A stretch of 64,000 nt of DNA. It comes from Nanobdellota archaeon (GTDB lineage Archaea; Nanobdellota; Nanobdellia; Woesearchaeales; JAGWAF01). The notes under the pieces are model-generated. The model was not told where the DNA came from and made no database searches. It was given only the letters and a program-made list of their open reading frames with translations. The stretch lies in the NCBI GenBank assembly GCA_038046365.1, contig JBBSWF010000020.1, forward strand, positions 14,201-78,200, given 5' to 3'. The position numbers and the translations under genes were made by a program. Below, piece by piece: positions 22,501 through 44,770 of this stretch (the stretch's first letter is position 1; each line of letters begins with the position of its first letter).

Positions 22501-24367
22501 TAACCTGTTCAATCTCAACAGCCAGGTGATGGGAGAACTGTCAAAAGGGATGCAAGTCCAAAGGACCCCCGGCATCAGATACTACGCGATAGCCGGGACA
22601 AAGCCATACGAATTCAACCTTGGAGCGTTCACAGTCTCTACCAAGGAACTCTTCAAGCTCGTGCTGCCAAACGATGGGATCACTACAACAGCATCAGCGC
22701 AGCATGTCGGAGGGCAATACATAAACGACAGCTGCAAGAACTACTACCAGATAAACCTCACGCACACAGACCTTGTCGACAACCCATTATCCAGAAGAGT
22801 CATAGAGAGAATAGTCGGAGAAGACCAGTACAAACAGACCGGGACGGCGCTAGGATACAACCAATACCTGAGGCTACAGATCGAGAAATGCGACCCGCAA
22901 GAACAGATAGTAATCATCGGAAAACCGATCAAGCCAGCGGAAGAACCTGCCCCGCTTGGATGCAACTGCGGAAACGGAGTGTGCGGAGTAGACGAGACGC
23001 CCGAGACCTGCCCCCAAGACTGCTCCGCGAAGATAGAAAGGCCCGCTCAAGAGATCGCGACAGAGGTTGCGGTCTATCTTGTAAGCACGCTGGTGTTGAT
23101 ATTCATACTATACCGAGCATTCAGGATACTCAAGAGGCGCGAGACCAAGAAGTTCTACACAAAGGAAGAACCGTACATCAAGACAGAAGAACGCGTGCAG
23201 ATAATCGGCGCAGCAGGCATAGAAAACATGGCTGCGCCGCCAATTCGGCCGAAACCATATGGATACGAAACCCTCCCCGCGAACGAGAAGCTGAGAATAG
23301 ACCTCGCCGACCTTGAAGAGGACCTCGACCGCGTGCTAGACGGGAAACCCAAACGACCAGTCTTCTACCCGCTTGAACTCAAAGAAGAGATAGATTCCAT
23401 CAAAAATAAACTTGAGATCAAGATCCCTGAGAAGAGAGGCGAAAGAAAGAAAGAAGCGCCTGTCCCTCCCCTGATAGAGACTTCTGAGATACGGAAGAGA
23501 ATCGAAGAGCTAAGGAACCAATATCCGCTCGCGGGCGGAAAGAAGCTTGAAGCGGCTGCCAGCTCAACTGAAGGCGCCACGCAACTTGGCAACGCGATCA
23601 AACGCGGATTGGCATCGATTCGAGAGGAGATATCAAGGATGCTAAGCGGAAGGCCTCCCCCAGCAGCCGAAGACGAGAAAGCCGAAGAAATCCATACAGA
23701 CAATACTGAAACGCCCGCGCCAAGACCGAAGAAAAGACGCATTGAGCCAAAACCACCTGAAGAACCCGCCTCAAAGAAGCTCGGATGGAAAGACGATGAG
23801 AGAGAAAAACTGCTGCAGCTGCTAGAAGAGGCGAGGAACCAGACCAGGAGAGTGTCTTTGGCGAAACAATCCCGAAGGAATGAGGAACTCGCGCGCAAAG
23901 AGCCGCCAAAGATCAGCGCGATGATCAAAGGCGAGCTCGACGACCTCTTTGAAGACACCAAACGGCTAATAGACGGCGCGATACTGCGGACCAAAGATAA
24001 GAGAGAAGAGAAGAAGAAAGAATGGAAGAAAGAGATCAAACTCAACGAAGCCAAAACAGAAAAAACACCCAGGCGAGAGAAGATAGACCTGAAAACGGAA
24101 CTGAAACCGGTTCCAAAGACTGAGAAAACCATTCCCGCGAAGCCTGCGCCAAAGCCGATCAGCAGACCGGCAATCCACCCAAGACCCGCGCCTGCTAAAA
24201 GTATCATGCCGGCGAAATCACCGCCGAAGAAGAGAGAAAGCAGCGTCTTTGGCGCTGAACTCTCCGGACTCGCAGACGAAGCAGAGCGACTCCTAGGACT
24301 CACTGACAAGATCAGCCGCAAGGCTGAGGAATCACAGAAGGCCAAGCGCAAGATGGAGAAGAAGTGA
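10556..24367 (+). CDS. Giant (4,603-aa) multidomain cell-surface protein. In order it contains an N-terminal signal-anchor TM, two subtilisin-like (S8) peptidase domains, beta-sandwich domains, a very long N-x-S/T-rich right-handed parallel beta-helix (PbH1-type) region, an Ig-like D-x-D-G-D module, a poly-Ala/Pro linker, an alpha/beta-hydrolase (GHSLGG lipase-like) domain, a Cys-rich module, a second TM helix and a K/E/P-rich cytoplasmic tail.
   Basis: Uninterrupted 13.8-kb ORF. The first S8 triad is DTGV(Q) (about nt 11865), HGT (about 11980) and GTSISTP (about 12450). The second is IIDSGV (about 13285), GHGSHIAG (about 13440) and SGTSFATPHV (about 13990). PbH1-like repeats include NNSRIAFNLIENSTGGLNLTNSFNNRIHNNTIRNNSVN. 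The lipase-like domain has LLHGFASSP plus AHSLGG (22130–22335). TM helices lie at about 10745–10810 and 23065–23125. Confidence 0.85.
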   Translation: MESQDSFQARQVDENLAEWARSQDGGSESYAFTPPSAPIAWRSHHREHLAEVLGAQPKDPSKLQLAIGVVVPLMFIIATIMTLADPSITGLVAYSERSIIELNATITSSRNITIGLNDIPMRVRVSGMATGNVSIIHRPSGRKMFETASPGIVALTEECGQACARRDYSSSADPPRYNLTLEVSIGEGAELNITTIGYTFTPANRQPLFNRKLANLTATAKTTTKIDLAGYAKDPDNDSITFIATNSMLADIEVHGSILQIIPKKNATGPTRFVVYASDTKSISRVTVNLDIRQDIGTDEAAAINAPFEIEPDLVEQTQLEDGTPVIIELEEPQEALGELIKAAKIKEEQTLLDTKTSDERVNVKRRYKNIPAVSAVMTQEGLQDLLSNPNIKAIRADEEFSISITDELKQVHAEPQARIMPDGTRLDGEGKTVCLIDTGVQTTHPDLLGKVIGGYNSIDSPEYSSTDISDDNGHGTAVAGIIAAPDGIAPMAMIFPVKACGKTGSCKASAILSAIDACIGARSTHNITVISGSFGDGLAHTAGDCPDTLGAAITAAHDAGMTMTFAAGNNGYLDGVNYPACDGRAISVGSSTQYDTPTSFTNKGSKTDLLAPGQNVTTTMIGGGWGEASGTSISTPFAAGAAMIIAQGLELTGRGATPEDVKNLLMNYSAKAMGMPMLDLSAAIAAATGKSETPIPINGTPTSPAGNETQTIAAEQHAGSIQKPPENQRRLTGGAKPTPSFTPALGKTSALVTRQIETEGKADVIIELELPNITMKDGFGVMSLNQGRAMTKDGLKDAVGRAQRSSLEGMKTALNGTFGTLSSDEDISITDQPEYLPFITGTVSASGLEKLKSTRSVKAIHPNLIRELLPTIIDPEPKASFDISLPTIGALYARDTLNYTGLGVKVAIIDSGVDYTHPDLGGCTRDQFLAGTCAKVPTGYAFCNATNCGRDPDPIDQFGHGSHIAGIIGGTGVGGLKGIAPNATFIAIKSCNATGSCPDASVIAGIDYAISHGADVITMSLGSVPIPNDGLDVIGQAASSAAMMYSITVVAAAGNSGPGTGSIATPAAGQGVLSVTASNDAGTAAVSDDTIASFSDRGPLAFGRFGPDISAPGVSINSTVPQTSQCPYSTVLCSNTGYKVSSGTSFATPHVTGAVALLREQDKNLTPAEIRSILMSSAASISGHPFDKGAGLINATGALTRATRMLIDGAEKGNLESIAGEYAEFNITIVNKDSVSRTITLTAENISEPDGNNSIAASWDLPLPFTAPGNNNTTVRLRMKTNSGATPSVYGGTIIATSDLSETMRTPFTLTVPLYGDGTISMRTSDSSTSSKTGDIFYFKLISPNASGFTTYLSWPDPQYDMDMYLFSEGGLLLTYSAGLDDPEWVGASNIYEKNYWVAANSYYVPSSGMSFEVATAYSSNLTIIPNTIQASAVAGQTKQMTFAIRNGLGPKNMTIALTRLQDSESVDTTRTAPAGGNDYYSFTRNGLNISGMKTCDVIINWTGGADLDLSYYTSNDGGSTNTTRLPSSAHDNGALNQTREALIAHDVGFMAGYYSEWGVRTYNKNNSATQYNLTVRCKSNKPASEASVSPSYIQTMNNSQEINITVNVDTTDLAPNSSIAYMLVARYNDTREWAHSAVTLTVAAAPGVHAANGEYDGGTINLSNVADITNIPDMTLEKTTIGRIRWNGPIDARDANFTRYTTISAGLIAVNASVLHRSINSSANITFYGASCAGYKLLTSRGYIPDKEEATESGDICNATSDPACSSIACSGNTLTFQADHPTTFALLNGITNSIITTSRIGESNLTDANITDSRVNSSDITLSSIKNASLTRSIVNRTTIDNSTFIKSNATGSNINISSVNNSDVLNSTLIEVNMKDSVAAWSYIDPSNITNSTVNNSFVEDSEIDNSSIYDSNATNSTVNASLLSQADVRNSTIKGSTIHNTSINNSRIENSTISNGINISCGQTLTENINLSFNVVGHTPCYNAGADSITINCNGYTVTGTGSAPVINITGRAGVNVLNCNLFGNNAIAITRSNSSSITNVSAGWGTITISGASSNNTLQRASNISALTIGDDASYNRMNNISLSTLTVSGNWNNITNSSVNLTATVSGANNTITGSSMQSGGNIITISGSGHLIANNTISGNIAAGLLSSTRISDNNMTNACVGSIAAVPRNDITISGNRLLACTGGAVAINFEPIQNTNFTVANNQILSSDNPLNLVGGNDWKILGNTFNYSGPITLTSSNGTLFANNTVNSPVNAIAIDISNLTGSSIRESTIANGSEGSIGIRLRSSIENGTMENLGIDNNTIEGFTKCVSTSTGEDYPERLNGTSIYGNKFHSCGIAIELEANATGASAGGMRILHNRVTSTSTALKLRSASGARIENNAFNATGNTSILLIDNLNATMINTTITGTLNGISIINTSGIITRYLQIYNATSCAVLLNRSNGGILTNLTINTTSSSIHITGGMNHTINETNAPHPVILENASYSIINFTAQVNFTAQSPISSIVNLSDNYITINSTLAPQFNISAILTAYVSFNEAVPGIDQEDDGTLSTCPLTRCTTISQTGSIFVFNVTGFTSYGGISPTPGSVIVNSTINGSIVSNSTVNNATVTNSTINRSVITNSTVHNSTASNSSIINSILGNSTLTNSTLTGSYANASQMPIAQILNSTIISALVNRTNAENSSIRFSNTTSSIINASSVDNSSSTTSNLTTSIVNLSTVSGSIISNSSAYSSNISGSISDNSTIHNSNLSLSNANTSNIDLSGLSNTTAYASRVNTSSTANATLIRTNLTLANISLATLENSSVQNSTILHGRITSSTLLNSTASNSTITVSRIVTSITDNSTQLSTNLTRSLMNASVSENSRMTNTTSMASNINSTTADNTTTADSRLEQSTTNTTRLYGSTLGNSSAIRCIINLSQAYNSTLANSTILLATVNLSALDNSSAWQSNITESTVNKSLSDTSSIYMSVIANAQLNNTVSDNSTASNISSTNSTINSSIAVNLTLIESTLMSANVNRTYAHNITATNSTIKTSTINNSRAENSTIIGSNQTWSDVNNSDVRNSTIYRANVTASVVAGSTAVNSSINQSDVVNCNLTNVTVHNSTLFGETIINDIVINSRSLAACGKVIGRDAIMNQNITCDGAALIFNRSNNRVSCQGFLIQGNGTSTAIEIRSKPNSSADACIITNYSIAISVNDTNDTTLTNMKIDQSRIGLLISNSSNVTIGNMTVTMSTLVGALIDPSDNITIENSTFAGGVNPIILLDTNNSRIAFNLIENSTGGLNLTNSFNNRIHNNTIRNNSVNIRLTSGTGNIIYDNFLSDAKSLHIFAGAGNNFNTSGASGGHGNRFDNTIALRIYDQNGDGYGERGWDWPYNSTNNGTVNINVSDLGPITSRQDQAPVQVGAFNIVEMISGGTYNQIDLDGVFSDPDGDPLNYTVSGNNSLGVTVDAVTHVVYISAPGNFTGTQIVTFIANDSILAVSAGLTINVAASAPPPSTPQGSQGQGLAGPSAEDTAGADAAAAAAAAAAAAVTAAAPAVTAAAAAPAAAAAPSPPSSVFAPTVTAESFRNMIEGIKKTEDTPVACGYRTKKTIEKEVVPTKTNLTQVKLPEGYKMATDPFTLSCDGDSLDLTLNVPAGFTDLKALRCKKDGCTNIIEKEVTTKELVCGGKTVTQIRQEEITQRKESLALEDLGVIIEEGTTITNAKRAIQSGKNRLEFTREIRVPFQAKISSPKSSVPLPKNPSAAIIGTPLEVTLRNAQGPLAARITLPYIKPENYDQDSFAIFALTDGEWEYIESSTRDENNQKISAETNDLLKYVRNGVAQFAVIGTGCAACQQSKLAHTYSHEGARAAIILLHGFASSPKTWQFLIDEIALTNQPYQVYTFEFSASRPMMTTTREFMDLMELESGQFDTAYIVAHSLGGLITQEALHQSELAGTKYTWLPKVKKVVLIGTPNDGTPGVDVFQNLFQSLVNEKSVFNLFNLNSQVMGELSKGMQVQRTPGIRYYAIAGTKPYEFNLGAFTVSTKELFKLVLPNDGITTTASAQHVGGQYINDSCKNYYQINLTHTDLVDNPLSRRVIERIVGEDQYKQTGTALGYNQYLRLQIEKCDPQEQIVIIGKPIKPAEEPAPLGCNCGNGVCGVDETPETCPQDCSAKIERPAQEIATEVAVYLVSTLVLIFILYRAFRILKRRETKKFYTKEEPYIKTEERVQIIGAAGIENMAAPPIRPKPYGYETLPANEKLRIDLADLEEDLDRVLDGKPKRPVFYPLELKEEIDSIKNKLEIKIPEKRGERKKEAPVPPLIETSEIRKRIEELRNQYPLAGGKKLEAAASSTEGATQLGNAIKRGLASIREEISRMLSGRPPPAAEDEKAEEIHTDNTETPAPRPKKRRIEPKPPEEPASKKLGWKDDEREKLLQLLEEARNQTRRVSLAKQSRRNEELARKEPPKISAMIKGELDDLFEDTKRLIDGAILRTKDKREEKKKEWKKEIKLNEAKTEKTPRREKIDLKTELKPVPKTEKTIPAKPAPKPISRPAIHPRPAPAKSIMPAKSPPKKRESSVFGAELSGLADEAERLLGLTDKISRKAEESQKAKRKMEKK

Positions 24368-30472: not shown

Positions 30473-30589
30473 GAAAGCAGCCGGGCCCCTATAGTAAAGG
30501 ACACAAATAAGTGATAAAAATAGTTGTGTCCTTTAGATATAGTGGCGGAGACTGAGTGTTCAATTATTCATGTCCGCCACTATAGAACC

Positions 30590-30800
30590 GGCTATGCGGG
30601 ATGGCGCGAATAATGGCGCGATTAGAAGCCTGTTTTCTCGTCCATAAAATAATAATCGCGCCAAAACTATGGCGCGAATATGGCGTGATTGTGGCGCGAA
30701 TAATCGGCGTTTCTCGTCTATAAAAAAACCTAATCGCGCCATCGGCATGGCGCGAATATGGCGCGATAGTGGCGTGATAATGGCGCGATAAATTCAATAT
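30590..30800. repeat. Intergenic array of about ten roughly 11-nt direct repeats (core TGGCGCGAATA / ATGGCGCGA). They are organised as two larger units of about 90 bp, each with an inverted repeat ggcgcga(t/a)ta ... taatcgcgcc around an A/T-rich spacer.
   Basis: Read from the sequence. The spacing is irregular and there are no unique spacers of uniform length, so it is not CRISPR-like. Confidence 0.6.
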
Positions 30801-30931: not shown

Positions 30932-31339
30932 TTGAGGCAGCTAATGAATCAAACCGCGATATATACTCAAAAACAAAGTCTTGAACCACTTTCGGAACCG
31001 AAATCCTTTTATCTGCCATACCCACGGAAAAATTACAACATGGACATGACAGGAGTGTTGATCAGCGCCTTAGCAGGAGGGGCTGCGGCGGTCTTAAGGA
31101 AGGAGCCAAGCAACCGTAAGGTCATACCGGACTACGCCGACGCCCTGATTGGTGCCGCCGGAGGCATGACGCTGGCCTACTACTTGCCGGTATACTATCC
31201 AGGGTTCACTCTAATATCATATATCTGCTTCACGCTGCTGTGCGCCATGAGCGGGTACGCGCTCGATGACCTGGCCAGCTCGGTCGCGTATCTGGCGACA
31301 CTGCCGGGAAAGAAATCAGCGAGGCGGAGACGCAGATGA
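30932..31339 (+). CDS. Small membrane protein. The start is possibly the internal ATG at about 31037.
   Basis: Hydrophobic segments GVLISALAGGAAAVL and GFTLISYICFTLLCAMSGYAL with a basic C-terminus. Confidence 0.4.
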   Translation: MRQLMNQTAIYTQKQSLEPLSEPKSFYLPYPRKNYNMDMTGVLISALAGGAAAVLRKEPSNRKVIPDYADALIGAAGGMTLAYYLPVYYPGFTLISYICFTLLCAMSGYALDDLASSVAYLATLPGKKSARRRRR

Positions 31340-31860
31340 ACGAGGCGCTGCAGATGGCGGTCGGCTCGGGCGGAGGAGCGCTCATCCGGGCAGTGATAGG
31401 GATAATCAAAGCATTGGGAGACAGGACGTTTGAATATATAGATTGGAGAAAGCTCATCGCGAACACGGCAGTCGGGTCGATATGCGGTCTGATCGTCATG
31501 ATAGCCCTAGAAGCGATTCCCTTCTTAAAAGTCAACTGGGAATACAGGGCGTACATCGCGATCATCGTAGGATTCGCCGGGAGCGACTTCTTCGACAAGC
31601 ACTTCAAGAGCTTCGGGCTCACATCAAGCTCCCTTGGCGCCCCGATGATCGGCCAGCCTCAAGAATCAAGCTCGATCAGCCCACGCCAGCAGAAGGCGCT
31701 AGACTATATCAGATCCAGTGGGTCGATAAACAACGACCAATACAAAGAACTCAACAAAGTATCCGACCGCACAGCTGTGCGAGACATGCAAGACCTCAAA
31801 GACAAAGGGAAGGTCAAGACGCAGGGCAAGGGAAGGAATGTGAAGTATGTGCTGCCATAA
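31336..31860 (+). CDS. Membrane protein with a C-terminal winged-HTH (DeoR/Fic-associated type).
   Basis: TM segments IRAVIGIIKAL, VGSICGLIVMIALEAIPFL and AYIAIIVGFAG. The C-terminal QQKALDYIRSSGSINNDQYKELNKVSDRTAVRDMQDLKDKGKV is wHTH-like. Confidence 0.5.
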   Translation: MNEALQMAVGSGGGALIRAVIGIIKALGDRTFEYIDWRKLIANTAVGSICGLIVMIALEAIPFLKVNWEYRAYIAIIVGFAGSDFFDKHFKSFGLTSSSLGAPMIGQPQESSSISPRQQKALDYIRSSGSINNDQYKELNKVSDRTAVRDMQDLKDKGKVKTQGKGRNVKYVLP

Positions 31861-31922: not shown

Positions 31923-32447
31923 ATGAACATGGGATTACTACACAGCGTGCAACCAAAAGACCTCGAATTCCTGACAACCCTCGACAAGAAGATGAGGACG
32001 TGGCATCCCTTGGCCCAGAGCCGAGTGTACAGCGAAGGAGGGGATTACGATTTCAATGAAGTGAAGATCACAGAGGAAGAACTCCGAGGGGTGCTCGACG
32101 CGTGCAAGAGAAACGACCTCGTTTTCTATCCTAAAAATACCAACACGGGATTCTCGCTGGGATATTTCGTCGCAAAGACACTGATGCTGCCAAGCGACAG
32201 GCAGAAAAGCCTGCTTGACCGGATCAAACGGAACACCTGCCCGGACATAAATCTCGGCGTGTTTACAGACCTCCTGACGTGGAACGAGACCCTGTTCGGG
32301 ATGATAGAGCGCCAGATGCCTGCAGGATACGACGGGGCTGAAGGGTTCAAGAGATTATCAGACCACTTCATGACAGAAAAGAACCTGAAATTGGCGAAGG
32401 CCGCAGGTATCACGATCATAAACGATTACACCAGGCATCAATATTGA
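31923..32447 (+). CDS. Hypothetical protein. I place the start at the internal ATG because the tabulated 334-aa ORF overlaps the upstream gene in another frame.
   Basis: MNMGLLHSVQ begins at 31923 after an AGGTGA motif. The upstream 480 nt of the tabulated ORF is an Arg-rich shadow of gene 31336..31860. Confidence 0.4.
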   Translation: MNMGLLHSVQPKDLEFLTTLDKKMRTWHPLAQSRVYSEGGDYDFNEVKITEEELRGVLDACKRNDLVFYPKNTNTGFSLGYFVAKTLMLPSDRQKSLLDRIKRNTCPDINLGVFTDLLTWNETLFGMIERQMPAGYDGAEGFKRLSDHFMTEKNLKLAKAAGITIINDYTRHQY

Positions 32448-32476
32448 GGACCTAACAGGAGCAGAGAGGAGGGGAC

Positions 32477-32560
32477 TCAAAACCCCTTCAGCAACCGCAA
32501 CAACTCCACCGCCTTCTTCGGGCTTCCACGACCGACAGATCCGTGACCGATGCCCAGCCC
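32477..32560 (-). pseudogene. Duplicated 3'-terminal fragment of the UDG-like gene (it encodes ...GRGSPKKAVELLRLLKGF). It is a remnant created by the direct duplication that flanks the HEPN/MNT cassette.
   Basis: A 41-nt exact match (32498–32538 equals 33764–33794 plus flanks) to the end of gene 33727..34425. Confidence 0.5.
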
Positions 32561-32618
32561 ATCGACGGGAGTGTATAAAATATAACAGAAAATTGTTGAT
32601 AGTATAACATAATCAGAG

Positions 32619-33074
32619 GTGTTACATTTAATAGAAAAGTATTTAAATGATAACACACCATCAGGATTGATGACCACGATCGATAACCACAAGGCCATCC
32701 TGCGCGAGCTCCTCGAGGATATCGATGAGAAGATCAGGAAAGACATCATCCTTGAGAGGCAGAAGATCCTCGGTTTCGCCCTCTCTGAGGCGTCATCCCA
32801 CATGCTAGCCGTGCTCCTCCTCAAGAACAAGCTTGTAAGCTCCGGATTCACAATCAACCACCGCTACTTCTGCTCTGAACAGAGAGCGAGAGAGAGGCTG
32901 AAAATGGACTTCCCTGGAAAGGATGAGATTATCCCGCTCCTCGTGAAACAGGAACAGGCCAGGGACAGGCTATGCTACGGCAGGGACAAGAGCAGAAAAG
33001 AGGTGGAAGAGGCAATAGCCAACATCAGCAGGCTAAAGACGATAATAGAAGATAAACTGGGTGAACCATTATGA
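32619..33074 (+). CDS. HEPN-like / nucleotidyltransferase-partner protein (putative TA component).
   Basis: Small helical protein immediately upstream of, and overlapping by 4 nt, the MNT gene. The family assignment is tentative. Confidence 0.4.
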   Translation: MLHLIEKYLNDNTPSGLMTTIDNHKAILRELLEDIDEKIRKDIILERQKILGFALSEASSHMLAVLLLKNKLVSSGFTINHRYFCSEQRARERLKMDFPGKDEIIPLLVKQEQARDRLCYGRDKSRKEVEEAIANISRLKTIIEDKLGEPL

Positions 33075-33685
33075 GACAACAAGACCTCATCTCACTGGCA
33101 TATGACTACCTATCCCTGCTCACAGCCAGAGTAGGGACCGCGAAGATAAGGAGAGTGGTGCTCTTCGGTTCCGCCGCGCGCGACGAAGCAGACAAGGAAA
33201 GCGATATAGATATATTCATCGACACGACAGACAAGATAGACCATGAAGTGGAGAGAGCCACAAAATCGTTCGATGTAATACGTGAAAGCCGATGGGACAT
33301 AAGGGGAGTGCGCAATCCATTAAGGCCTATATGCGGAGACCTAGAGACAAAGAGATGGGCTGAGCTACGCGAAGAGATGGAAGACCACGGGATACTCCTA
33401 TATGGACGGATGGAGACCGGCGCGCTCAAAGAACAATACCTTGTCAGCTATGACCTGCAAGGGATGGCCCAAAACAAAAAGATGAAACTTATCAGGACGC
33501 TGCATGGATACTCCACCAGAAAAGACGGAAAGACCTATTCGCATAAAGGCCTTATAGAGAAGACAGGAGGCGCTCGCATCGGACAGAACGCGTTCCTCGC
33601 GCCGACTTGCTCGAAGAAGACAATCGAGGAGACCTTCGACAAGACAGGAGCCAAGTTCCAGATGAGAAAGATGATGAGCAGATGA
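33071..33685 (+). CDS. Minimal nucleotidyltransferase (MNT) domain protein with a C-terminal extension.
   Basis: The GS..D.D NTase motif is present (RRVVLFGSAARDEADKESDIDIFID). Confidence 0.65.
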   Translation: MRQQDLISLAYDYLSLLTARVGTAKIRRVVLFGSAARDEADKESDIDIFIDTTDKIDHEVERATKSFDVIRESRWDIRGVRNPLRPICGDLETKRWAELREEMEDHGILLYGRMETGALKEQYLVSYDLQGMAQNKKMKLIRTLHGYSTRKDGKTYSHKGLIEKTGGARIGQNAFLAPTCSKKTIEETFDKTGAKFQMRKMMSR

Positions 33686-33726
33686 ACGGCGCAATCGACC
33701 ATCGTCTCTATTTTCCCGACACGGCG

Positions 33727-34425
33727 TCAGCGAATACATTCCTTGAGCAACCTCAACAACTCCACCGCCTTCTTCGGGCTTCCACGACCGACAGGGAAGT
33801 AGCAAGGGATGACCTCGGAAGAGGCATATCTCGAGCGGTCGTTGTCTCCGAAGGAAACCTTGAACGTCCCCAACCTCTTCTTCGCCAGCGCTTGTGAATG
33901 ATAATCAGCGAGCTTGATCTTCCGCCCTGTCAAGCGCTCGAAAGGGATAAGACCCATCGCCACTAGGTATTTTGGCTTGACAATCTCCAGTTCACGCTGG
34001 AGAGCCGGGAGGAACAGATTGATCTTCGCCGAATCAGGCAAGGCAGCGTCAGCGCCGGTGGACTTGACGACATTCGAGATGTAGATGGAGTTGGAATCCA
34101 GGAAATCCCTCACCTTATCCGTGAAGCGGACAGACCATCGCGGGTTGGACTCGATATAAGAGAGCAATCCATCGTCGAAGAGCCCTGCCTTGTGGAAGAC
34201 CCTCCAGACCTGCTTGGTGCCGATGAACGGGAACCTCGGCCCAGTCCAGGAAGGATCAGAACTGATATTGCGGCGGGTCGGATTGATGAAGACGAACATA
34301 AACTCAGGATTCTGTTCACGACCTCCACCGTAGATCGGAGAGAGGCCGCTGCCCGGGAAGTTATCCTTGTCGATCTTGTCGACGTGACGCCAGAGGCTCT
34401 TCAGATCAGAGATATGATCGAGCAT
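33727..34425 (-). CDS. Uracil-DNA glycosylase superfamily protein (family 4-like).
   Basis: A motif-A-like segment is present (IYGGGREQNPEFMFVFINPTRRN). The C-terminal segment FPVGRGSPKKA matches the fold and length. The assignment is tentative. Confidence 0.45.
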   Translation of the reverse strand: MLDHISDLKSLWRHVDKIDKDNFPGSGLSPIYGGGREQNPEFMFVFINPTRRNISSDPSWTGPRFPFIGTKQVWRVFHKAGLFDDGLLSYIESNPRWSVRFTDKVRDFLDSNSIYISNVVKSTGADAALPDSAKINLFLPALQRELEIVKPKYLVAMGLIPFERLTGRKIKLADYHSQALAKKRLGTFKVSFGDNDRSRYASSEVIPCYFPVGRGSPKKAVELLRLLKECIR

Positions 34426-34527
34426 ATGGAAAGCAGCGCAAGCTGGTTAAAATAACTTTGTCAAACCGATCCTAGTGCGCGCAGAAACATTTATATATGT
34501 CTCTAAACCATAATACTATGGTCTAAC

Positions 34528-35094
34528 ATGGATAATGAACGCCTGAACATACTCAAGCTCCTGATAGAGAGCAAGGAAGAGACATTCAGCATCAGGCAGA
34601 TCTCGCTCCATAGGAAGATCAACTACAAATCAGCGTACATCAGCACCCATCAGCTAGCGAAAGAAGGGATAGTCGCAATGAAGAAACAGGGCAACACGAC
34701 AGTATGCTCATACAACAACACATTCAACAGCACAGTGTTCCAGGTCGAATACCAAAGACAGCAGGAACTGTTGAAACGCCCAGATTTCAAGGTCTTGCAC
34801 AACCGCCTGTCAAAGGTGAAAGAACAGTTCATACTCCTGCTCTTCGGCTCCTACGCCAAGGGAAAAGAGAAAAAAGGATCGGATATCGACCTATTGCTCA
34901 TCTCAGACGACCCAAAACCAGTCGAAGCACAGATCCGCCTCATCCCCTTGGACATCCATCTGACACACATAACCTATGACAGCTTCACAAAGATGTTAAA
35001 ATCAAAAGAGTTCACAGTAGTGTCAGAAGCGCAGAAGAATAACATCCTGCTCTTCGGAATAGAAGACTATTACCGGCTGATCAACAATGCTTGA
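34528..35094 (+). CDS. wHTH + minimal nucleotidyltransferase (MNT) protein.
   Basis: LLLFGSYAKGKEKKGSDIDLLLISDD NTase motif, preceded by a wHTH. Confidence 0.65.
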   Translation: MDNERLNILKLLIESKEETFSIRQISLHRKINYKSAYISTHQLAKEGIVAMKKQGNTTVCSYNNTFNSTVFQVEYQRQQELLKRPDFKVLHNRLSKVKEQFILLLFGSYAKGKEKKGSDIDLLLISDDPKPVEAQIRLIPLDIHLTHITYDSFTKMLKSKEFTVVSEAQKNNILLFGIEDYYRLINNA

Positions 35095-35617
35095 TGATAA
35101 TAGGATAAAGGAAGCGGAGAGGAACGTCAGAGAATACCTACAGTCAGGCATGCTCGAGAAGCATAAACCCGACAAAGACATCGAGAAAGTCCTCCTCGAC
35201 AACTCAAAGGACAGCATCGAGATAGCGGACTTCCTCGCAGAAAACAAGAGATCCGACCTGTGGATCATAGTCACCTCATATTATTCGATGTTCTACATGG
35301 CCAATGCGGTGCTCCTCAGAGCAGGATTCAAAGTCGGGGACAAGATCCCCCATAAGGTCACAGCCGACGCCCTCATCGTCTTTGTCAGAGACAAGCTGAA
35401 GAAGAGTATCATAGAAGAATATGAAGAAGCGCAAATCGAAGCTCTCCCTGGAATAAAAGCAGACGAGATAATCGACGAATTCGACAAGGAAAGAAGGAAG
35501 AGGGGCATACTCCAATACGAGACCACGCAAATAGAGAAACATTCGAAAGCGATTACTTCTTTAAACAGAGCCAAGAGCTTCCTCTTCGAGATGGAGAAGC
35601 TGATGGAGATCCCATGA
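35087..35617 (+). CDS. HEPN domain protein, partner of the upstream MNT.
   Basis: It overlaps the MNT stop by 8 nt. Helical protein with a YSMFYMANAVLLRAGF-type HEPN core. Confidence 0.55.
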   Translation: MLDDNRIKEAERNVREYLQSGMLEKHKPDKDIEKVLLDNSKDSIEIADFLAENKRSDLWIIVTSYYSMFYMANAVLLRAGFKVGDKIPHKVTADALIVFVRDKLKKSIIEEYEEAQIEALPGIKADEIIDEFDKERRKRGILQYETTQIEKHSKAITSLNRAKSFLFEMEKLMEIP

Positions 35618-35640
35618 TGACGAGTCTCCAGAATCCCAGC

Positions 35641-36270: not shown

Positions 36271-36388
36271 GTGACAAGCGGTGAGCGGGGCGTTTAAAAA
36301 GATGGGCGGGGCTGCCGAGAGGCAAAGGACCGGAAACCTTATTAACCATATTCATATAAAGTGAATAATCATTCATTTTTATCGAAAA

Positions 36389-37072
36389 ATGATACCCAAG
36401 AACACCGCGAAGATAATCCGCCTGCTGCTGCGCAGGACAGACAGGATAGGCCTGAACATCAACCAGATCGCCAAGGCGTGCGAGATAAGCGTCGGCAGCG
36501 CTTTCAAGATACTGAAAAGCCTGGAGAATGACAGGCTGGCCTCCTGCCAGAAGATAGGGAACGGCTCTTTCTACTCACTCGACCTTGGCAACAAGGAAGC
36601 GGTGAAAATCTGCGAGCTTCTGCTCCTTGAAGAGAGGCGGAACCTCAAAGGGTACGCAAGGCTGTACGCAAAGGACATAGAGACATTTGGCAAGGCGAAG
36701 ATGATAGTCCTGTTCGGGTCGGTGCTGAGAGGCAACCGATTCAACGATGTCGACGCGCTGTTCGTGACAGAAAGAGCGAAGGAGGCAGCTGATTTCTGCG
36801 ACTCGCTAAGCGCAGCACGTACCAAAGTCATATCCCCCCTTATAATCCCCATATATGACCTTATACGAGAAATGAAAAAGGGCGGAGGCGTAGTCGGCTC
36901 CATAGTCAAGGAAGGAGTCATAATAAAAGGGGAAGACTCCTTTGTGGAGGCGATAAGAGATGGCAGGAAGGATCACTCGATTGGGATGGTGCCTGAAGAG
37001 GGGAAAAAGGCTGCGAAGGACCAAGCCAGACCCACTAGAGGCAGGAAGACACATCAAAAAAGCGGATCATAA
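36389..37072 (+). CDS. wHTH + minimal nucleotidyltransferase (MNT) protein.
   Basis: MIVLFGSVLRGNRFNDVDALFV NTase motif with an N-terminal wHTH (INQIAKACEISVGSAFKILKSLE). Confidence 0.65.
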   Translation: MIPKNTAKIIRLLLRRTDRIGLNINQIAKACEISVGSAFKILKSLENDRLASCQKIGNGSFYSLDLGNKEAVKICELLLLEERRNLKGYARLYAKDIETFGKAKMIVLFGSVLRGNRFNDVDALFVTERAKEAADFCDSLSAARTKVISPLIIPIYDLIREMKKGGGVVGSIVKEGVIIKGEDSFVEAIRDGRKDHSIGMVPEEGKKAAKDQARPTRGRKTHQKSGS

Positions 37073-37400
37073 CCTAAATGCAGCAAGATACAACATCCTC
37101 GGCGGCTTCTCGGATTGGGCAGTCTCTCAGGCATATTACGCGATGTACCATGGATTATTGGCGATCCTGGCAGCCAAAGGCTATGAATCCCGGAACCATG
37201 AATGCACATTGACAGCGGTCGAGCACCTCATCGGAGCGAAGGAGACCGAGCTGACTTTAGAAGAGCTGTACTTCATAAGGAACGCAGGCCAGAACACAGA
37301 CCTGGACGCGAAATCGTTACGAGAGACCTTCCAATATGGGACAAGAGTCACGGTCGAGAAAGAGCTCCTAGACCGGCTCCTTGGCAAGGCGAAGCGATAG
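36960..37400 (+). CDS. HEPN domain protein, partner of the upstream MNT. The start is uncertain. By analogy with the other pair, a near-cognate start close to the MNT stop (for example TTG 36981) is plausible.
   Basis: A HEPN-type R-x4-H motif is present (ESRNHECT), with the helical core WAVSQAYYAMYHGLLAILAAKGY. Confidence 0.55.
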   Translation: MAGRITRLGWCLKRGKRLRRTKPDPLEAGRHIKKADHNLNAARYNILGGFSDWAVSQAYYAMYHGLLAILAAKGYESRNHECTLTAVEHLIGAKETELTLEELYFIRNAGQNTDLDAKSLRETFQYGTRVTVEKELLDRLLGKAKR

Positions 37401-37494
37401 TCGAGAAGATCGAGGCCGGACTGCCGACAGCCTAGAGCGCCAGGCCAGTATAGGCGATCCCATCACACCTGAAATTGATAAAACCCAATCCCTA

Positions 37495-38388
37495 CTAGAC
37501 CAAACCCATCCACAAACTAGGTATGCTCCGCTCGTGCTTCTCCTTGAAGAAGAAACCCTTGCCGCCATCGGCTGTCGGGCGCTCCACCACATTGACTCGC
37601 GGGCGGTAATGGTCGATCATGTCGAAGTTTGCTGTGGTGATGTTGAAGTTCTTCGCGCCGAGATTCCGAGAGATGGAGAGAGCCTTGAGAAAGACCTCAG
37701 GCATCATGACCGCGCAGCCGACATTGAGGACCACGCCTCCAGAGCTTTGGTCTCCGCCGAGATGGCAGACTGTATCAGTGAACTTGAGGAAGTCGTTGTA
37801 TGTCGCGAGGCCTAGTCTTGCGCCATCGCAGGCAGGATGCTGATGGATGATATCCGCGCCGATACCGACGTGGACCGTGTAAGGGATGCTCTTCTTCAAG
37901 CACTTGTAGGAGACGCTGAGGTCCTTTAGAGGGAGGTTCCGGTCTTCGATCATCTTGCCGTGGGCATAACCGTAACCTTTCTCGGCGTCCTTGTTGATCG
38001 CCTCGTTTATCCAGCGGCCAGTCTCCTCAGCCATGCCAAAAGAGCCGTCCTTGATCCTTGCGGCGACGTCCTCGCTAGTCTCGCCGCCGAAAGCCATCTC
38101 GAAATCATGGATCGAAGCAGCGCCGTTGGTGGCGAGATGCGTGATGAAACCCTTGTCGATGAGATCGACGATGTATCTCGAGAGACCCTGCTTGATAGCG
38201 TGGCCGCCCATCATGAAGATTATGGGCTTATTAGCTTTCTTAGCAGCCTTGATCCGCGCGATGAGATCCCTGAAGTCCACACTATCTATAGGATCAGGGA
38301 TGCTGGCGAGCGGCTTGACATCTGACAAGGATACCTTCGACGGGCGAGACTTGAGAGGGTAGGTGCGGATGCGGGAACGGTCGAACAT
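37495..38388 (-). CDS. dys: Deoxyhypusine synthase. The start was reassigned to the internal ATG at 38388.
   Basis: Typical DHS sequence (IIFMMGGHAIKQGLSRYIVDLIDKGFITHLATNGAASIHD... GGDQSSGG...). The upstream 56 codons of the tabulated ORF overlap hsdR and the shared promoter. Confidence 0.75.
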   Translation of the reverse strand: MFDRSRIRTYPLKSRPSKVSLSDVKPLASIPDPIDSVDFRDLIARIKAAKKANKPIIFMMGGHAIKQGLSRYIVDLIDKGFITHLATNGAASIHDFEMAFGGETSEDVAARIKDGSFGMAEETGRWINEAINKDAEKGYGYAHGKMIEDRNLPLKDLSVSYKCLKKSIPYTVHVGIGADIIHQHPACDGARLGLATYNDFLKFTDTVCHLGGDQSSGGVVLNVGCAVMMPEVFLKALSISRNLGAKNFNITTANFDMIDHYRPRVNVVERPTADGGKGFFFKEKHERSIPSLWMGLV

Positions 38389-38434: not shown

Positions 38435-41266
38435 ATGAGTAATATGCCTAAAGCGATTATCCCTCCAGAACAGAACGAGACGGAATCGCAGACCCGGATC
38501 ACCAAAATCAATGTCTCCCTTGAAGAGGCTGGCTGGAAAGTTCGAAGCAAGGCCATGGTCTGGGAAGAGGCAGATACCTTACAGTCAGATTTCAGGAGCG
38601 GAAACTACCTCACCCATGATGACACTTATGAAAATGAACAACAAAGCCGTTACGCAGATTATCTCCTCCTTGACTCAAAAGGTAATCCGTTGGCGGTAAT
38701 AGAGGCAAAAAAGACGACCAAGGACCCAGTAACCGGGCAAAAACAGGCAGAGGGCTACGTTGACGATATCAAGAAACAGACCGGGAAAGACCTGTTTATC
38801 TTCTTCACAAACGGTTATGAAATCTGGTTCTGGAACAGGCCATATGAGAACCCGCGATTAGTGAAGGGATTCCATAGCCGAGAAGACCTTGAGAACATCC
38901 GATTCCAGAACGAATCAAAGAAGGAGCTGTCTGACATACCTATCAGGACTGAAATCGTCAACCGCCCTTATCAGATTGAAGCCGTGAAAAGAGTCCTTGG
39001 AGGAATACAAAAAGGCAAAAGAAAATTCCTGATAGTCCAAGCCACTGGAACCGGGAAGACAAGGGTCGCGATGGCCTTGATTGATATATTGAAACGCTCG
39101 CATCGCGCAGAGCGGATCCTATTTCTCGCAGATAGAAAAGCCCTGAGAGACCAGGCATTTGATGAAGGGTTCAAAGAATGGTTGCCTGAAGAATCCCGGT
39201 CAAAGATATTTGGAGGAAGCCTTGATAAAAACGCGAAACTCTACGCTTCTACAATCCAGACATTTATGGAATGTTACAAGGAGTTCTCTATCGGCGCTTT
39301 TGACCTGATAATCTCTGACGAAGCACATAGGTCGATCTATAACAAATGGAAGGAGGTGTTCACGTATTTTGACGCAATCCAGATCGGTTTGACCGCAACC
39401 CCCTCAGATCTTATCGAAAAAGACACGTTCAAGTTCTTCCAGTGTGATGGGCAGCAACCGACCTTCCTGTATACATACGACCAAGCGAAAAAAGAAGGGT
39501 GGCTATGCGACTTCAAGCGATGGGAAGCGCAGACACATTTCCAGATCGAAGGAGTCAAGCCATCAGACATCCCAGACTCGATAAAGGCAAGACTAGCAGA
39601 GCAGGGCCTTGACGAGGAGGATATGGCCTGGGATGGGTCCTCCATAGAAAAAGAAGTGGCGGTGGTCGGCACGAACGAGGCTATCGTCAAGGAATTCATG
39701 GAGAACTGCATCAGAGACGAGACTGAAACACCTGCAAAAACTATAATATTCGCTGTGTCAAAAAAACATGCGAAAAGGATCTGGGAAGCTTTCGAGCGTC
39801 TCCATCCAGAATATAAAGGCAGACTTGCCCGGATAATAACCTCGGATGACAGCAGCGCGCAAAAGTTGCTGAAAGATTTCAAGACCGAAACGTACCCGCG
39901 GATAGCCATCTCGGTAGATATGCTAGACACAGGCGTAGACATCCCAGAGGTATGCAATCTAGTATTCGCCAAACCGGTCTTCTCCAAGATAAAATTCTGG
40001 CAGATGATCGGACGTGGCACAAGGAATGACGAAGCATGCAAAAAGAAAGAATGGATGCCTGGAGGTAAAAAAGAGTATTTCCTGATATTCGATTTCTGGA
40101 ACAATTTCGAGTTCTTCCAGATGAAGCCAGCTGGAAGAGAAGAAAAACCGACTGAAGCGATCGCTACCCGAATATTCAGGACACGGATCGAACAATTGAA
40201 GGATTTCATAAGCCAGGGAGATAAGAAGAGAGCCGACGAGGTCAAGAAGAGAATAAATCAAGACATCACGAGCCTTCCGCTGAAATCCGCATCATTGAAA
40301 GAACATATGAACGATATCGAAACCGCACTATCAGACGACTTCTGGGATAACGTAGGGATCGAACCAGTTAAATTCCTATCAGAGAGGATCAGACCATTGA
40401 TGAGGTTCCAGACAGATATCAATCTCAACAAGGCATCGTTCATACTGAAATGCGAGAGGCTCGGACTGGCAAGCCTACGCTCAGAAGAGCAAGGCATGGA
40501 AGAGCTAAAGGAGGGTATTGTGGCAGACATAAACCTCCTGCCAAAAACTCTCGACAAGGTCAAGGACAAGAAAGAGATGATATCCCGGGCGGTCAGCAAA
40601 GAATTCTGGGAAAAAGTCTCATATGATAACGCACAAGAGTTGATACGAGAACTCGGACAGGTAATCACATACAAGAGGAAAGAGGTCAAGAAGACTATCG
40701 TGCTGGACATAGATGATGTCGTCAAGCAACGCCGACTCATCGAGTACGGCCTTGAACCAAAACAAGAGTATGTCGATACCTATATCGAGAAAGTCGAGAG
40801 CCATATCAAGGAATTGGCGAGATCTGACACCACGATCAAGAAGATAGAAGCCGGCGAGCCGCTCGATGAAGAAGACCTCACCAAACTCGAAAAAAAGCTC
40901 AACAGCCCAGAGCTTTTCATAACCGAAGAAGTCATGCAGAAAGCGTATGAAAAGAGCAAAGGGACGCTGGTGCAATTCATAAAAAAGATACTCGGCCTCT
41001 ATGAGTTCCCTGACCCCAAGAAGCGGATCGAAGAAGAATTCAAGACCTTCATGATCGCGAACAACCAGTCTTACAACGCGGACCAGATCAATTTCTTACG
41101 GGCCATACAGACAGTCTTCGCAAAGAAGAAGCACATAGAATACGCCGACCTGTTCGACCCGCCATTCACGAACTTCGGGACACAGGCACCGGTACCCCTA
41201 TTCTCCAAAGAACAGCTCATCGACATAATCAAGCTATGCGATGAACTGGAAAATGAAGTTTTTTAG
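38435..41266 (+). CDS. hsdR: Type I restriction enzyme R subunit (HsdR), superfamily-2 helicase/nuclease.
   Basis: N-terminal [19 protein letters not shown]. Motif I is [10 protein letters not shown] and motif II is a DEAH-like ISDEAHRS. The length is 943 aa. Confidence 0.85.
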
Positions 41267-41267
41267 A

Positions 41268-41304
41268 TATTTGTTTACAAATCTAGCTTATTTGTAAACA
41301 AATA
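41268..41304. promoter_or_regulatory. 15-bp perfect inverted repeat (tatttgtttacaaat-ctagctt-atttgtaaacaaata). It lies between the hsdR stop and a TATA-like box (41306–41318) upstream of the RHH gene. It is a candidate operator/C-box and/or the hsdR terminator.
   Basis: Exact reverse-complement arms at 41268–41282 and 41290–41304. Confidence 0.55.
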
Positions 41305-41336
41305 GATATTTATAATAGATTCACTAATCGGCCTAT

Positions 41337-41756
41337 ATGACTTCACAAGAGTGGACCACCATATCTGTAAAGGTGACCAAGCAACAGAAGCAACTCATCG
41401 AACGGATATGCGAAAAGAATGGCAAGTCGGTCAACAAGCTTCTGAGCGGAATGATAGAACGGGAACTCAAACCTATGAGTGACCCCTCGTGTTTCCCAGA
41501 AAACCAGGGGATACCCCTAATCGGCGAGAACCGATTCTCCTACCTGCCTGAGAAAGACCAGTTCATCTGGAAGATAGATCTTGGCGTCCACGGATCCTCA
41601 ATACTCAGCGAAGAAGTCACGCCCGCATACCTTAAGAGCCTGTCCTCTGCAGTAGCGGAAGGCATCAAGCAGAGAGAGGATTTCAACGATAAACTGAATA
41701 GGGGCGCGGTCGTCCCGAAGAAACTCATCAAACTTGGGGTGAAACGCCGATGTTAG
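41337..41756 (+). CDS. Ribbon-helix-helix (CopG/Arc-like) DNA-binding protein embedded in the R-M operon. It is a candidate controller.
   Basis: N-terminal TISVKVTKQQKQLIERICEKNGKSVNKLLSGMIEREL fits a strand-helix-helix pattern. It overlaps the hsdM start by 7 nt. Confidence 0.5.
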   Translation: MTSQEWTTISVKVTKQQKQLIERICEKNGKSVNKLLSGMIERELKPMSDPSCFPENQGIPLIGENRFSYLPEKDQFIWKIDLGVHGSSILSEEVTPAYLKSLSSAVAEGIKQREDFNDKLNRGAVVPKKLIKLGVKRRC

Positions 41757-43234
41757 CGCCTGAACTGAAATCAAGGATCAACAAACTCTGGGACAAATTC
41801 TGGGCAGGAGGACTGGCAAACCCGCTGACAGCGATAGAGCAGATATCATACCTCATCTTCCTCCGACGGCTCGAAGACCTGGACGACCAGGAAGCAAAGA
41901 GAGCCGAGGCCCTGAAACATATCCACGCGTCGGTCTTCAAAGGCCACGAAGACTGCCGATGGTCGCACTGGAAACACTACAACGCTGAAGATATGCTGGT
42001 CCACGTCAGAGATAAGGTGTTCCCATTCCTGAAGAACATACAGAAGGGAGAGGACGGCGAGTTCTCAAGGCAGATGCAGGACGCGATATTCCTGATACCC
42101 AAACCATCACTGTTACAAGAAGCGGTCAGTATAGTAGACGAGCTGAACATCACCGCACGGAACCAGGACACACAGGGAGACATCTACGAATACCTACTGT
42201 CTGAACTCAACCAGGCCGGAAAAGCCGGGCAATTCAGGACCCCTCGCCATATAATCAGGATGATGGTAGAGATCGTGAATCCACAGTTTGGAGAGAAAAT
42301 ATGCGATCCGGCGTGCGGAACAGCCGGCTTCCTGATAAACGCCTATCAGCACATCCTGAAGATCAACACATCGCCCGAGACTGTCAAGTATGATGCAGAA
42401 GGCGTGGCATACAATCTTGTCGGGGACAAGATAACCGACAAGAAACAGTGGGAGGCTCTGCGACGGAATACATTGTATGGGTTCGATTTCGACCCGACGA
42501 TGGTCAGGATCGCCTCCATGAATATGATACTGCACGGGATAGAACACCCCAACATCAAGCGGTTCGACACGCTATCCAAGGCATTTGAACACATAGCCAC
42601 ATATGACGTGATACTCGCCAACCCGCCATTCACGGGAAGCATCGACTCCTCTGACATAAGCGCGGAGTTCAAGCTGAACACCACAAAGACCGAACTGCTG
42701 TTCTTAGAGCTGTTCCATAACCTCCTGGAGATCGGCGGACGATGCGCGGTGATAGTCCCGAACGGAGTGCTGTTTGGATCATCCAAGGCACACGTCCAGA
42801 TAAGAAAACTGCTCCTTGAGAAGTGCCAGATGGAAGCGGTGATCTCCATGCCATCAGGGGTATTCAAGCCCTATTCCGGCGTAGGGACCGCAGTTATAGT
42901 GTTCACGAAAGGCGGACAGACCAAAGACGTCTGGTTCTACGACATGAAATCAGACGGGTTCTCCCTCGATGACAAGCGAGATCTCATAGACGGGAAAGGT
43001 GACATACCAGACATCGTCGAACGATTCAAGAACAAGCAGAGCGGAGAGAACAGCATAATCGTCTCATTCGAAGATATCAGGAGCAATGACTATAACCTGT
43101 CCATATCTCGGTATAAAGAAGTCAAACACGAAGAGGTCGTCTATGAAAAACCTGAGGCTATCATCGAACGGGTGATGAAGAGAGAAGAGGAGATCACTAA
43201 AGAGCTTGCCGAACTCAAACGGATTATAAAATGA
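41750..43234 (+). CDS. hsdM: Type I restriction-modification N6-adenine DNA methyltransferase (HsdM).
   Basis: N-terminal ISYLIFLRRLED, motif I DPACGTAGFL and catalytic NPPF (LANPPFTG). Confidence 0.85.
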   Translation: MLAPELKSRINKLWDKFWAGGLANPLTAIEQISYLIFLRRLEDLDDQEAKRAEALKHIHASVFKGHEDCRWSHWKHYNAEDMLVHVRDKVFPFLKNIQKGEDGEFSRQMQDAIFLIPKPSLLQEAVSIVDELNITARNQDTQGDIYEYLLSELNQAGKAGQFRTPRHIIRMMVEIVNPQFGEKICDPACGTAGFLINAYQHILKINTSPETVKYDAEGVAYNLVGDKITDKKQWEALRRNTLYGFDFDPTMVRIASMNMILHGIEHPNIKRFDTLSKAFEHIATYDVILANPPFTGSIDSSDISAEFKLNTTKTELLFLELFHNLLEIGGRCAVIVPNGVLFGSSKAHVQIRKLLLEKCQMEAVISMPSGVFKPYSGVGTAVIVFTKGGQTKDVWFYDMKSDGFSLDDKRDLIDGKGDIPDIVERFKNKQSGENSIIVSFEDIRSNDYNLSISRYKEVKHEEVVYEKPEAIIERVMKREEEITKELAELKRIIK

Positions 43235-44768: not shown

Positions 44769-44770
44769 AC

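Follow-up and report, generated by a model that had tools for sequence, protein, structure and literature searches.

A two-gene cassette of about 1.2 kb has been inserted into the 3' end of a UDG-superfamily gene in a Nanobdellota archaeon, and the end of the interrupted gene was restored by a 54-nt direct duplication. The locus belongs to contig JBBSWF010000020.1 (assembly GCA_038046365.1), of which 64,000 nucleotides were analysed (positions 14,201 to 78,200, forward strand). This whole stretch is called the window, and all coordinates without a locus label are counted from its first letter. The cassette carries a gene for a HEPN-fold protein and an overlapping gene for an MNT-type nucleotidyltransferase. 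We regard it as practically certain that the duplication arose with an insertion that restored the open reading frame (ORF) of UDG, and that the left repeat copy is the ancestral gene end. The explanation taken as a whole, including a recombination mechanism for the event, is the one that we lean towards.

A duplicated UDG 3' end flanks the cassette

The repeat search gave one direct repeat around the cassette, with copies at 32485-32538 and 33741-33794 that are identical at 52 of 54 positions (96%) and spaced 1256 nt apart. An exact 41-nt core lies within it (32498-32538 and 33754-33794); this core occurs twice in the 64 kb, and the number expected from 100 shuffles is 0. A previous annotation made from the letters of the window, referred to here as the sequence-only reading, had described a direct duplication of the UDG 3' end around a HEPN/MNT cassette, and we find the same. 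Its position of the first core copy and its end of the second are correct, and the start of the second copy, given there as 33764, was misplaced by 10 nt.

The repeat search and the ORF translation place the right copy on the minus strand at the present coding 3' end of UDG (33727-34425, minus strand; 232 aa; Pfam UDG 2.7e-8), where it makes up the final 18 codons. The left copy, read in the same direction, encodes GRGSPKKAVELLRLLK. Specifically, the minus-strand ORF that runs through the left copy terminates in ...GRGSPKKAVELLRLLKGF-stop and the UDG gene terminates in ...GRGSPKKAVELLRLLKECIR-stop. The two tails differ after the common peptide: KGF-stop follows the left copy (stop codon at 32477-32479) and KECIR-stop the right one, with E-C-I-R and the stop codon at 33727-33740 on the minus strand. 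Both mismatches between the copies are synonymous in the UDG frame (CGG/AGG for Arg and CTG/CTC for Leu).

Between the copies there are only two genes, as had been noticed before. They are co-oriented on the plus strand (32670-33074 and 33071-33685), and the stop codon of the first overlaps the start codon of the second by 4 nt (ATGA, 33071-33074). The pair is preceded by an A+T-rich, promoter-like non-coding leader of 131 nt (32539-32669, plus strand), and a spacer at 33686-33726 separates the convergent stop codons of the MNT and UDG genes.

Empty and occupied sites in related genomes

The arrangement before the insertion is preserved in the related locus L015 (UDG protein P0219, about 88% nucleotide identity). 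This is a clean empty site in which UDG adjoins the same upstream 172-aa gene. Two segments of the window, 32236-32536 (end of the 172-aa gene, spacer and orphan) and 33738-34466 (right copy and UDG), are both collinear with L015 and overlap there at 8634-8688, i.e. both repeat copies align to one place. The UDG of L015 has 230 aa and ends in GRGSPKKAVELLRLLKGF-stop, which is identical to the orphan peptide of the window including the KGF-stop tail; the window segment with the spacer and this old tail and stop (32448-32484, minus strand) is collinear with the true end of that intact gene. Because the UDG of L015 carries exactly the orphan peptide and adjoins the same upstream gene, the left copy (32485-32538, minus strand), together with its tail and spacer, represents the ancestral 3' end, which has stayed where it was. 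The insertion either brought or produced the right copy and its new tail. L014, in which UDG is 76% identical, is empty as well, with UDG next to a homologue of the 172-aa gene.

The same cassette is present in L011/L012 (about 86% identity) with the same left junction, in which ...GACCGACAG is joined to ATCCGTGACC. The left flank of these loci differs from that of the window: their orphan has the tail GRL-stop and adjoins a Fic gene. The Fic arrangement is found without the cassette in L013, L021 and L022, where an intact UDG ends in RRL-stop, and the orphan of L011 adjoins Fic just as the true UDG end does in the empty site of L013. Moreover, the L011 orphan has a 13-nt deletion between CGC microhomologies; it is decaying, as expected of a non-functional remnant. 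The new tail of the window is homologous to the RAGIR-stop of L011, and among 122 UDG homologues the IR-stop ending is confined to cassette-bearing lineages. The sequence-only reading had taken the second copy for the real C-terminus of UDG, the first for an orphan fragment, and the whole for the footprint of an insertion with target duplication or recombination. The translations and the empty sites in L015 and L014 bear this out. It had further proposed that relatives lacking the insertion should have the UDG 3' end next to the upstream gene, which is the case directly in L015 and L014 and via the Fic gene in L013, L021 and L022.

The Fic block is a second indel directly beside the repeat. 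The Fic-domain gene (449 aa) lies together with a 68-aa gene between the 172-aa-gene homologue and UDG in L011 (3638-5347), L013 (3289-4992) and L021, and both are absent from the window, L015 and L014. No flanking repeats were found around this block.

The window sequence is identical to an 85-kb contig from a Hainich groundwater metagenome (ERZ1292621 and related samples), and its UDG protein is listed at NCBI under a Nanoarchaeota archaeon MAG. Short-read contigs (L008-L010) break at the 41-nt repeat, as could be expected if the structure had been produced by assembly. However, four independent assemblies, among them contigs of 63-189 kb, and several short contigs show this arrangement as well, with identical repeats. 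Because these four assemblies and the diverged lineage L011/L012 carry the same structure, the arrangement is not an assembly artefact. The orphan also does not look like what is left of a tandem UDG duplication: it has a sharp 54-nt boundary, and the alignment with the empty sites shows an insertion and not a decayed paralogue. Taken as one alternative, an artefact or a tandem remnant is hardly credible.

The C-terminal motif of UDG

The search for UDG homologues gave 331 proteins at E <= 1e-10, and those with a source name are from Woesearchaeota/Nanoarchaeota. Close relatives of the window protein are few, only a handful. The C-terminal motif GRGxPKxAVExL is conserved in the family, and the duplicated core encodes GRGxPKxAVExLxLL, with variation only in the residues after the motif. 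The coincidence of the duplicated core with the conserved motif explains why only an ORF-restoring insertion would survive: an insertion at this place destroys UDG unless its end is restored, and selection on UDG accounts for the form of the surviving event. In seven other archaeal and candidate phyla radiation (CPR) genomes, with homologues of up to 58% identity, no duplicated UDG 3' end was found at either the nucleotide or the peptide level; it follows that the end of UDG is no general hot spot.

Divergence of the cassette and its surroundings

The cassette and the Fic block occur in all four possible combinations: the window has the cassette only, L011 has both, L013 has Fic only, and L015 and L014 have neither. 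The two indels are separated only by the approximately 54-nt core and the old tail. Within UDG the informative sites conflict among four lineages, with 16, 14 and 5 sites supporting the three groupings. Given the four-gamete pattern and the conflicting UDG sites, recombination or recurrent gain and loss has taken place at or beside the repeat. A single tree does not fit the pattern of the cassette, Fic and UDG unless recombination or repeated gain and loss is allowed.

Comparison of the window with L011 shows that the cassette genes have 45.5 synonymous differences at 220 sites (0.21), as compared to 64.5 at 159.5 sites (0.40) in UDG (Fisher p=5e-5). The nucleotide identity is 93-94% in the cassette genes and 86% in UDG, and the 5' leader of the cassette is identical at 116 of 131 positions (88.5%). 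Because all four cassette/Fic combinations exist and the synonymous divergence of the cassette is halved, we conclude that recombination at the repeat has led to exchange, loss or re-insertion of the cassette. The two repeat copies of the window have four substitutions in common relative to L015 and one private substitution each; creation or homogenisation of the copies is therefore much younger than the divergence of the window and L011 cassettes. Taken together, these data show that the repeat has been recombinationally active, by conversion, by excision and re-entry, or by transfer, and the order of events is beyond the resolution of five lineages.

Upstream of the orphan lie genes at 30932-31339, 31336-31860 and 31929-32447, which include one with weak holin-like and DeoR-HTH matches and one for the 172-aa protein, which has no family. 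As compared to L011 these left-flank genes have 63-64% amino acid identity and a synonymous divergence (dS) of 0.8-1.0, far more than UDG or the cassette, and their 3' end is 85% identical to L013. The ancestry of the left flank is mosaic.

Proteins and leader of the cassette

The second gene of the cassette (33071-33685, plus strand) encodes a 204-aa MNT-type nucleotidyltransferase, the putative antitoxin. It matches Pfam NTP_transf_2 (1.2e-8) and Polbeta (1.6e-8), both above the cut-off, and NCBIfam MntA below the cut-off. Its nucleotidyltransferase (NTase) motif GS-x10-DxD, FGSAARDEADKESDIDIF, fits the pattern G[SG]-x9-13-Dx[DE]. In the AlphaFold2 model (pLDDT 93.4) the N-terminal half best matches MNT antitoxins of solved HEPN-MNT complexes (Foldseek: 8xeh_E, 8xeo, 7bxo). 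The extra C-terminal domain of about 90 aa (residues ~115-204) has a confidently predicted ferredoxin-like beta-alpha-beta...alpha-beta fold and is conserved across a family of about 27 members. No Pfam match was found for this domain, and Foldseek gave a weak resemblance to GhoS (2llz, E 0.05).

The first gene (32670-33074, plus strand) encodes a 134-aa protein, the putative toxin, which the sequence-only reading had called HEPN-like. This name is justified at the level of the fold. The AlphaFold2 model (pLDDT 96.6) is a helical bundle, and PDB ranks 1-9 are all HEPN proteins (2hsb, 2q00, 1wol, 8yuf, 8xeh, 8xdj, 4nqf), with probabilities of 0.89-1.00, template-modelling scores of 0.49-0.68 and E-values of only 0.09-0.6. 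It is not supported by sequence profiles: neither the protein nor 27 relatives have a match in Pfam, NCBIfam or PADLOC, and hhalign gave no link between it and the window's own HEPN protein. The family is small (69 clusters at 50% identity among 1.84 billion), and its alignment has conserved H7, H64, E95 and R98-x4-Y103-G104, of which H7, H64, E95 and Y103 are invariant. Two HEPN proteins of the window that are recognised by Pfam or PADLOC also have R-x4-Y (RETFQY and RGILQY).

In L016 and L019, too, a 134-aa gene is paired with one of about 208 aa, and the contexts there are unrelated. In the cassette the HEPN-like gene comes first; the order is opposite in the two neighbouring pairs described below. 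Considering the predicted fold, the NTase motif and the gene coupling, the module most likely works as an MNT/HEPN (type VII-like) toxin-antitoxin or defence pair. One point speaks against this assignment: the canonical catalytic motif Rx4-6H is missing from the 134-aa protein, which has no His at the position. The module thus resembles MNT/HEPN systems in fold and architecture but fails in one defining sequence feature.

The leader of the cassette contains a TATA-like tatttaaa (32640-32647), which stands 23-30 nt before the ATG of the HEPN-like gene and may act as a promoter element. Three ATAACA motifs and one exact ATAACAGAAAA are found at 32575-32660 and are a candidate operator for autoregulation. 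The distant modules carry TGTTA-N4-TAACA palindromes upstream of the HEPN-like gene, twice in L016 (1940-2010) and once in L019 (3655-3700).

Searches for mobility functions and further copies

Integrase, transposase or recombinase Pfam matches were not found in the 41 ORFs that were scanned across the 64-kb window, and the same ORFs contain no integron integrase or cassette array. The inverted-repeat search gave no terminal inverted repeats that pair the cassette ends, and no attC-like palindrome in 32539-32600 or 33686-33740, where no dedicated attC model was run. There is no tRNA-like or other relevant Rfam target at the insertion site. Among 5.8 billion protein clusters, relatives of the cassette with more than 40% identity occur only at the present locus, and the next MNT relatives are at most 40% identical. 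A metagenome scan with the MNT protein gave no relatives, and neither the cassette nor the repeat core was found in the viral, plasmid and phage collections. The distant homologous modules in unrelated contexts are without flanking repeats.

The idea that the same cassette with similar flanks might be found elsewhere is not borne out: the metagenome, viral, plasmid, phage and protein-cluster searches gave no copies off this locus. A metagenome scan with a degenerate 26-nt pattern of the core found only empty sites like that of L013 (L021 and L022) and one match in L020. The latter, an exact 26-nt core match at 176-201, was judged to be chance; it lies on a high-GC bacterial contig in an unrelated ORF that encodes ...RSPKKAVELF.... 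The repeat could have been a widespread intergenic motif, which the sequence-only reading had named as a reason to reject its claim. It is not: it is present twice in the window, was not found in viral contigs and occurs in metagenomes only at UDG 3' ends of the clade, apart from the chance match. The word "mobile" in that reading is supported only indirectly by the four-gamete pattern and the lower dS of the cassette, and no mobilising enzyme or second insertion site was found for it.

Mechanism of the insertion and its alternatives

A self-contained module of about 1.2 kb, consisting of the promoter-like region, the HEPN-fold gene and the overlapping MNT gene, has entered UDG 18 codons before its old end. 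After the inserted DNA come a second copy of the 18 codons and a new 4-codon tail, by which UDG keeps its conserved C-terminal motif. Beside the upstream gene, the first 54 nt and the former tail with its stop remain as a non-coding orphan. We infer that the event was driven by recombination and was not catalysed by an enzyme encoded in the element. Two routes can be imagined. One is displacement of the 3' end, for which UDG would provide the homologous anchor and the left junction of GACCGACAG and ATCCGTGACC would be the illegitimate join. Displacement by homology-facilitated illegitimate recombination was proposed for orphan 3' ends in Rhs, contact-dependent inhibition (CDI) and type VI secretion system (T6SS) effector loci (PMC5361080). 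Assessment of microhomology at such a joint needs the donor sequence. In the other route, the chromosome and a DNA circle, which share only the 54 nt, would undergo a single (Campbell-type) crossover.

Once in place, the 54-nt copies may themselves serve as a recombination substrate. Precise loss of the cassette would regenerate an intact UDG with the old tail; the empty site would then read from the 172-aa gene through ...TCAAAACC and the core to GGAAGTAGCA, and the junction of the excised circle would read ...GCGAATACATT, the 54-nt core, ATCCGTGACCG. The repeats would also allow gene conversion, as well as transfer of the cassette into related genomes in which the UDG end is conserved by selection at the protein level.

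Recombination-driven insertion is, by inference, favoured over transposition. A transposon, or a miniature inverted-repeat transposable element (MITE), with a 54-bp target-site duplication produced by staggered cleavage would account for a direct target duplication that flanks the insert exactly and for lineage-specific substitutions common to both copies within a genome. The cassette has neither terminal inverted repeats nor a transposase, no other copies were found, and to our knowledge 54 bp is far longer than any target duplication in prokaryotes; we consider such an element very improbable. A serious rival is that an integrase acting in trans, whose gene lies at another place in the genome or on a helper element, would use the core as an attachment (att) site to integrate and excise the cassette. 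The cassette would then have been a non-autonomous circle with its own UDG end, i.e. an attP that brought the IR-stop tail. Archaeal att sites in gene 3' ends have repeats in a similar range of length, and it is typical of them that element DNA takes the place of the gene tail. Identical junctions in two flank backgrounds, each with an empty-site counterpart, and a dS of the cassette below that of the host gene fit this rival too. However, no integrase is present in the cassette or in the scanned ORFs, 13 nt of the core are missing from the L011 orphan, the close relatives of the cassette are confined to this locus, and the viral, plasmid and phage collections are empty in this respect. The distant modules without repeats and the unduplicated UDG ends of the seven other genomes point in the same direction, and we judge integration of this kind to be distinctly improbable. 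A single ancient insertion followed by vertical descent is also unlikely in our view. It would require that L015 and L013 lost the cassette by precise deletion, that gene conversion kept the repeats alike and that the low dS reflects selection or allelic exchange within the cassette and not its movement. Both junctions are indeed common to the window and L011, precise deletion would regenerate exactly the empty-site tails that are observed, and the divergence of the right spacer and tail is close to the neutral level of the host (proportion of synonymous differences, pS, of 0.40 in UDG). On the other hand, two independent precise losses would be needed, together with a gain or loss of Fic that conflicts with any single tree, and both the non-coding DNA of the cassette (88.5%) and its synonymous sites are clearly less diverged than the synonymous sites of UDG.

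Several observations weigh against the recombination-driven insertion that we prefer. The same junction in two flank backgrounds is an outcome also expected of a site-specific recombinase that acts in trans, and we know of no documented case of homologous recombination on only 54 nt in DPANN archaea. No donor arrangement was found, either as a cassette beside an IR-tailed UDG without the orphan or as a cassette on a plasmid or virus. The MNT-UDG spacer, which is weakly conserved, and the new tail are together identical to L011 at only 35 of 54 positions (about 65%, with 17 gapped positions); this is far more divergence than in the cassette genes and agrees badly with the idea that the whole unit was transferred recently. 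No excess similarity of the window and L011 at the UDG 3' end was seen in sliding-window identity or in informative sites, i.e. co-transferred UDG sequence is not seen. Finally, selection could account for part of the lower dS of the cassette, as could later exchange of alleles within an old insertion.

A further step would be to regard the cassette as a recombinase-less mobile unit that carries a mimic of a conserved gene 3' end. It would excise as a 1,256-bp circle via the 54-nt repeats and re-enter related genomes at the UDG end, by host homologous recombination or with the help of an unlinked integrase, and would always restore the gene. We consider this doubtful.

The neighbouring region

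As compared to L015, the window has three additional MNT/HEPN-type pairs, all gained within 5 kb: the cassette, 34466-35635 and approximately 36301-37505. The latter two contain pairs of a winged helix-turn-helix (wHTH)-MNT gene and a HEPN gene (34528-35094/35087-35617 and 36389-37072/36960-37400); both are absent from L015 and the first also from L013. Both match the PADLOC candidate system PDC-M05 A/B. No flanking duplication was found at the junctions of the pair at 34466-35635. A type I restriction-modification operon follows at 38435-46705, with HsdR at 38435-41266, HsdM at 41750-43234 and HsdS at 45515-46705. Between HsdM and HsdS there is a Schlafen/AlbA_2-HATPase_c_4-wHTH gene (43231-44568) and two unassigned ORFs. 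With three pairs gained relative to L015 and a restriction-modification operon interrupted by the Schlafen/AlbA-HTH gene, this part of the window is a defence and toxin-antitoxin island of fast turnover.

On the other side of the locus, a single plus-strand ORF of 4,603 aa (13.8 kb) occupies 10556-24367; DPANN and CPR genomes typically encode giant proteins. At 30560-30800 short overlapping ORFs on both strands have repeated peptide motifs, MARI(M/W)..., which suggests a tandem DNA repeat between the genes, upstream of 30932.

Significance

Toxin-antitoxin and small defence modules are called mobile, although the mobility of two-gene cassettes without their own recombinase is rarely visible. 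The present locus shows the full footprint at nucleotide resolution, with occupied and matching empty sites in two flank backgrounds, an orphan end and a frame-restoring duplication. It documents rapid turnover of MNT/HEPN pairs in a DPANN genome of the Nanoarchaeota/Woesearchaeota type and points to a rare HEPN-fold family that has not been modelled. Our results suggest that selection on the host gene acts as a filter for the survival of insertions and that the resulting repeats make it easier for a cassette to be lost, converted or passed on by ordinary recombination.

What is new here is modest: the footprint left in a DPANN archaeon by a toxin-antitoxin-like cassette without a recombinase, with an unusually long ORF-restoring duplication, matched empty sites and an unmodelled partner family. 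If ordinary illegitimate recombination produced it, this is a clean textbook example and not a discovery, i.e. a fairly ordinary case of cassette gain and loss. If the cassette is indeed a recombinase-less mobile unit, it would represent a general and previously undescribed route by which toxin-antitoxin and defence pairs spread in DPANN archaea, and the HEPN-fold partner with Rx4Y and the MNT protein with its extra domain would be a distinct MNT/HEPN variant.

Comparison with known systems

The cassette is similar to MNT/HEPN systems (MntA-HepT, type VII) in its two small, translationally coupled genes, in the NTase motif and Pfam matches and in the structural matches to MNT antitoxins; the predicted fold of the partner, too, best matches HEPN proteins, including HepT toxins, and two conventional MNT/HEPN pairs are found at a distance of a few kb. 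It differs from them in a partner that HEPN sequence models do not detect and that has Rx4Y in place of Rx4-6H, in having the HEPN-like gene first, in the additional C-terminal domain of its MNT protein and in the rarity of the family. In contrast to transposons, insertion sequences and MITEs, the cassette has no terminal inverted repeats, and its duplication of 54 nt is not short. Integron gene cassettes, which often carry toxin-antitoxin pairs, are likewise small, usually with one or two genes, lack a recombinase and are polymorphic for presence and absence. Unlike them, the present cassette has no attC-like imperfect palindrome at either end and no integron integrase or array, and its flanking repeat is host coding sequence. 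Integrative elements in gene 3' ends, with their att duplication, have in common with it the flanking direct repeats, a conserved gene as the target, an ORF restored with a new tail and a single copy of the repeat at empty sites. The insert here is only 1.2 kb, however, and carries no integrase or other element genes, and no integrase was found among the scanned ORFs of the window. C-terminal displacement in Rhs, CDI and T6SS loci (PMC5361080) is comparable in that a conserved gene body acquires a new 3' end together with the genes attached to it, and the old end is pushed downstream as an orphan. In those loci the exchanged ends are alternative toxin domains, whereas here the end that was displaced and the one that came in encode the same peptide, a conserved part of a housekeeping-type enzyme; a toxin-antitoxin-like pair is the passenger, and the host is a DPANN archaeon.

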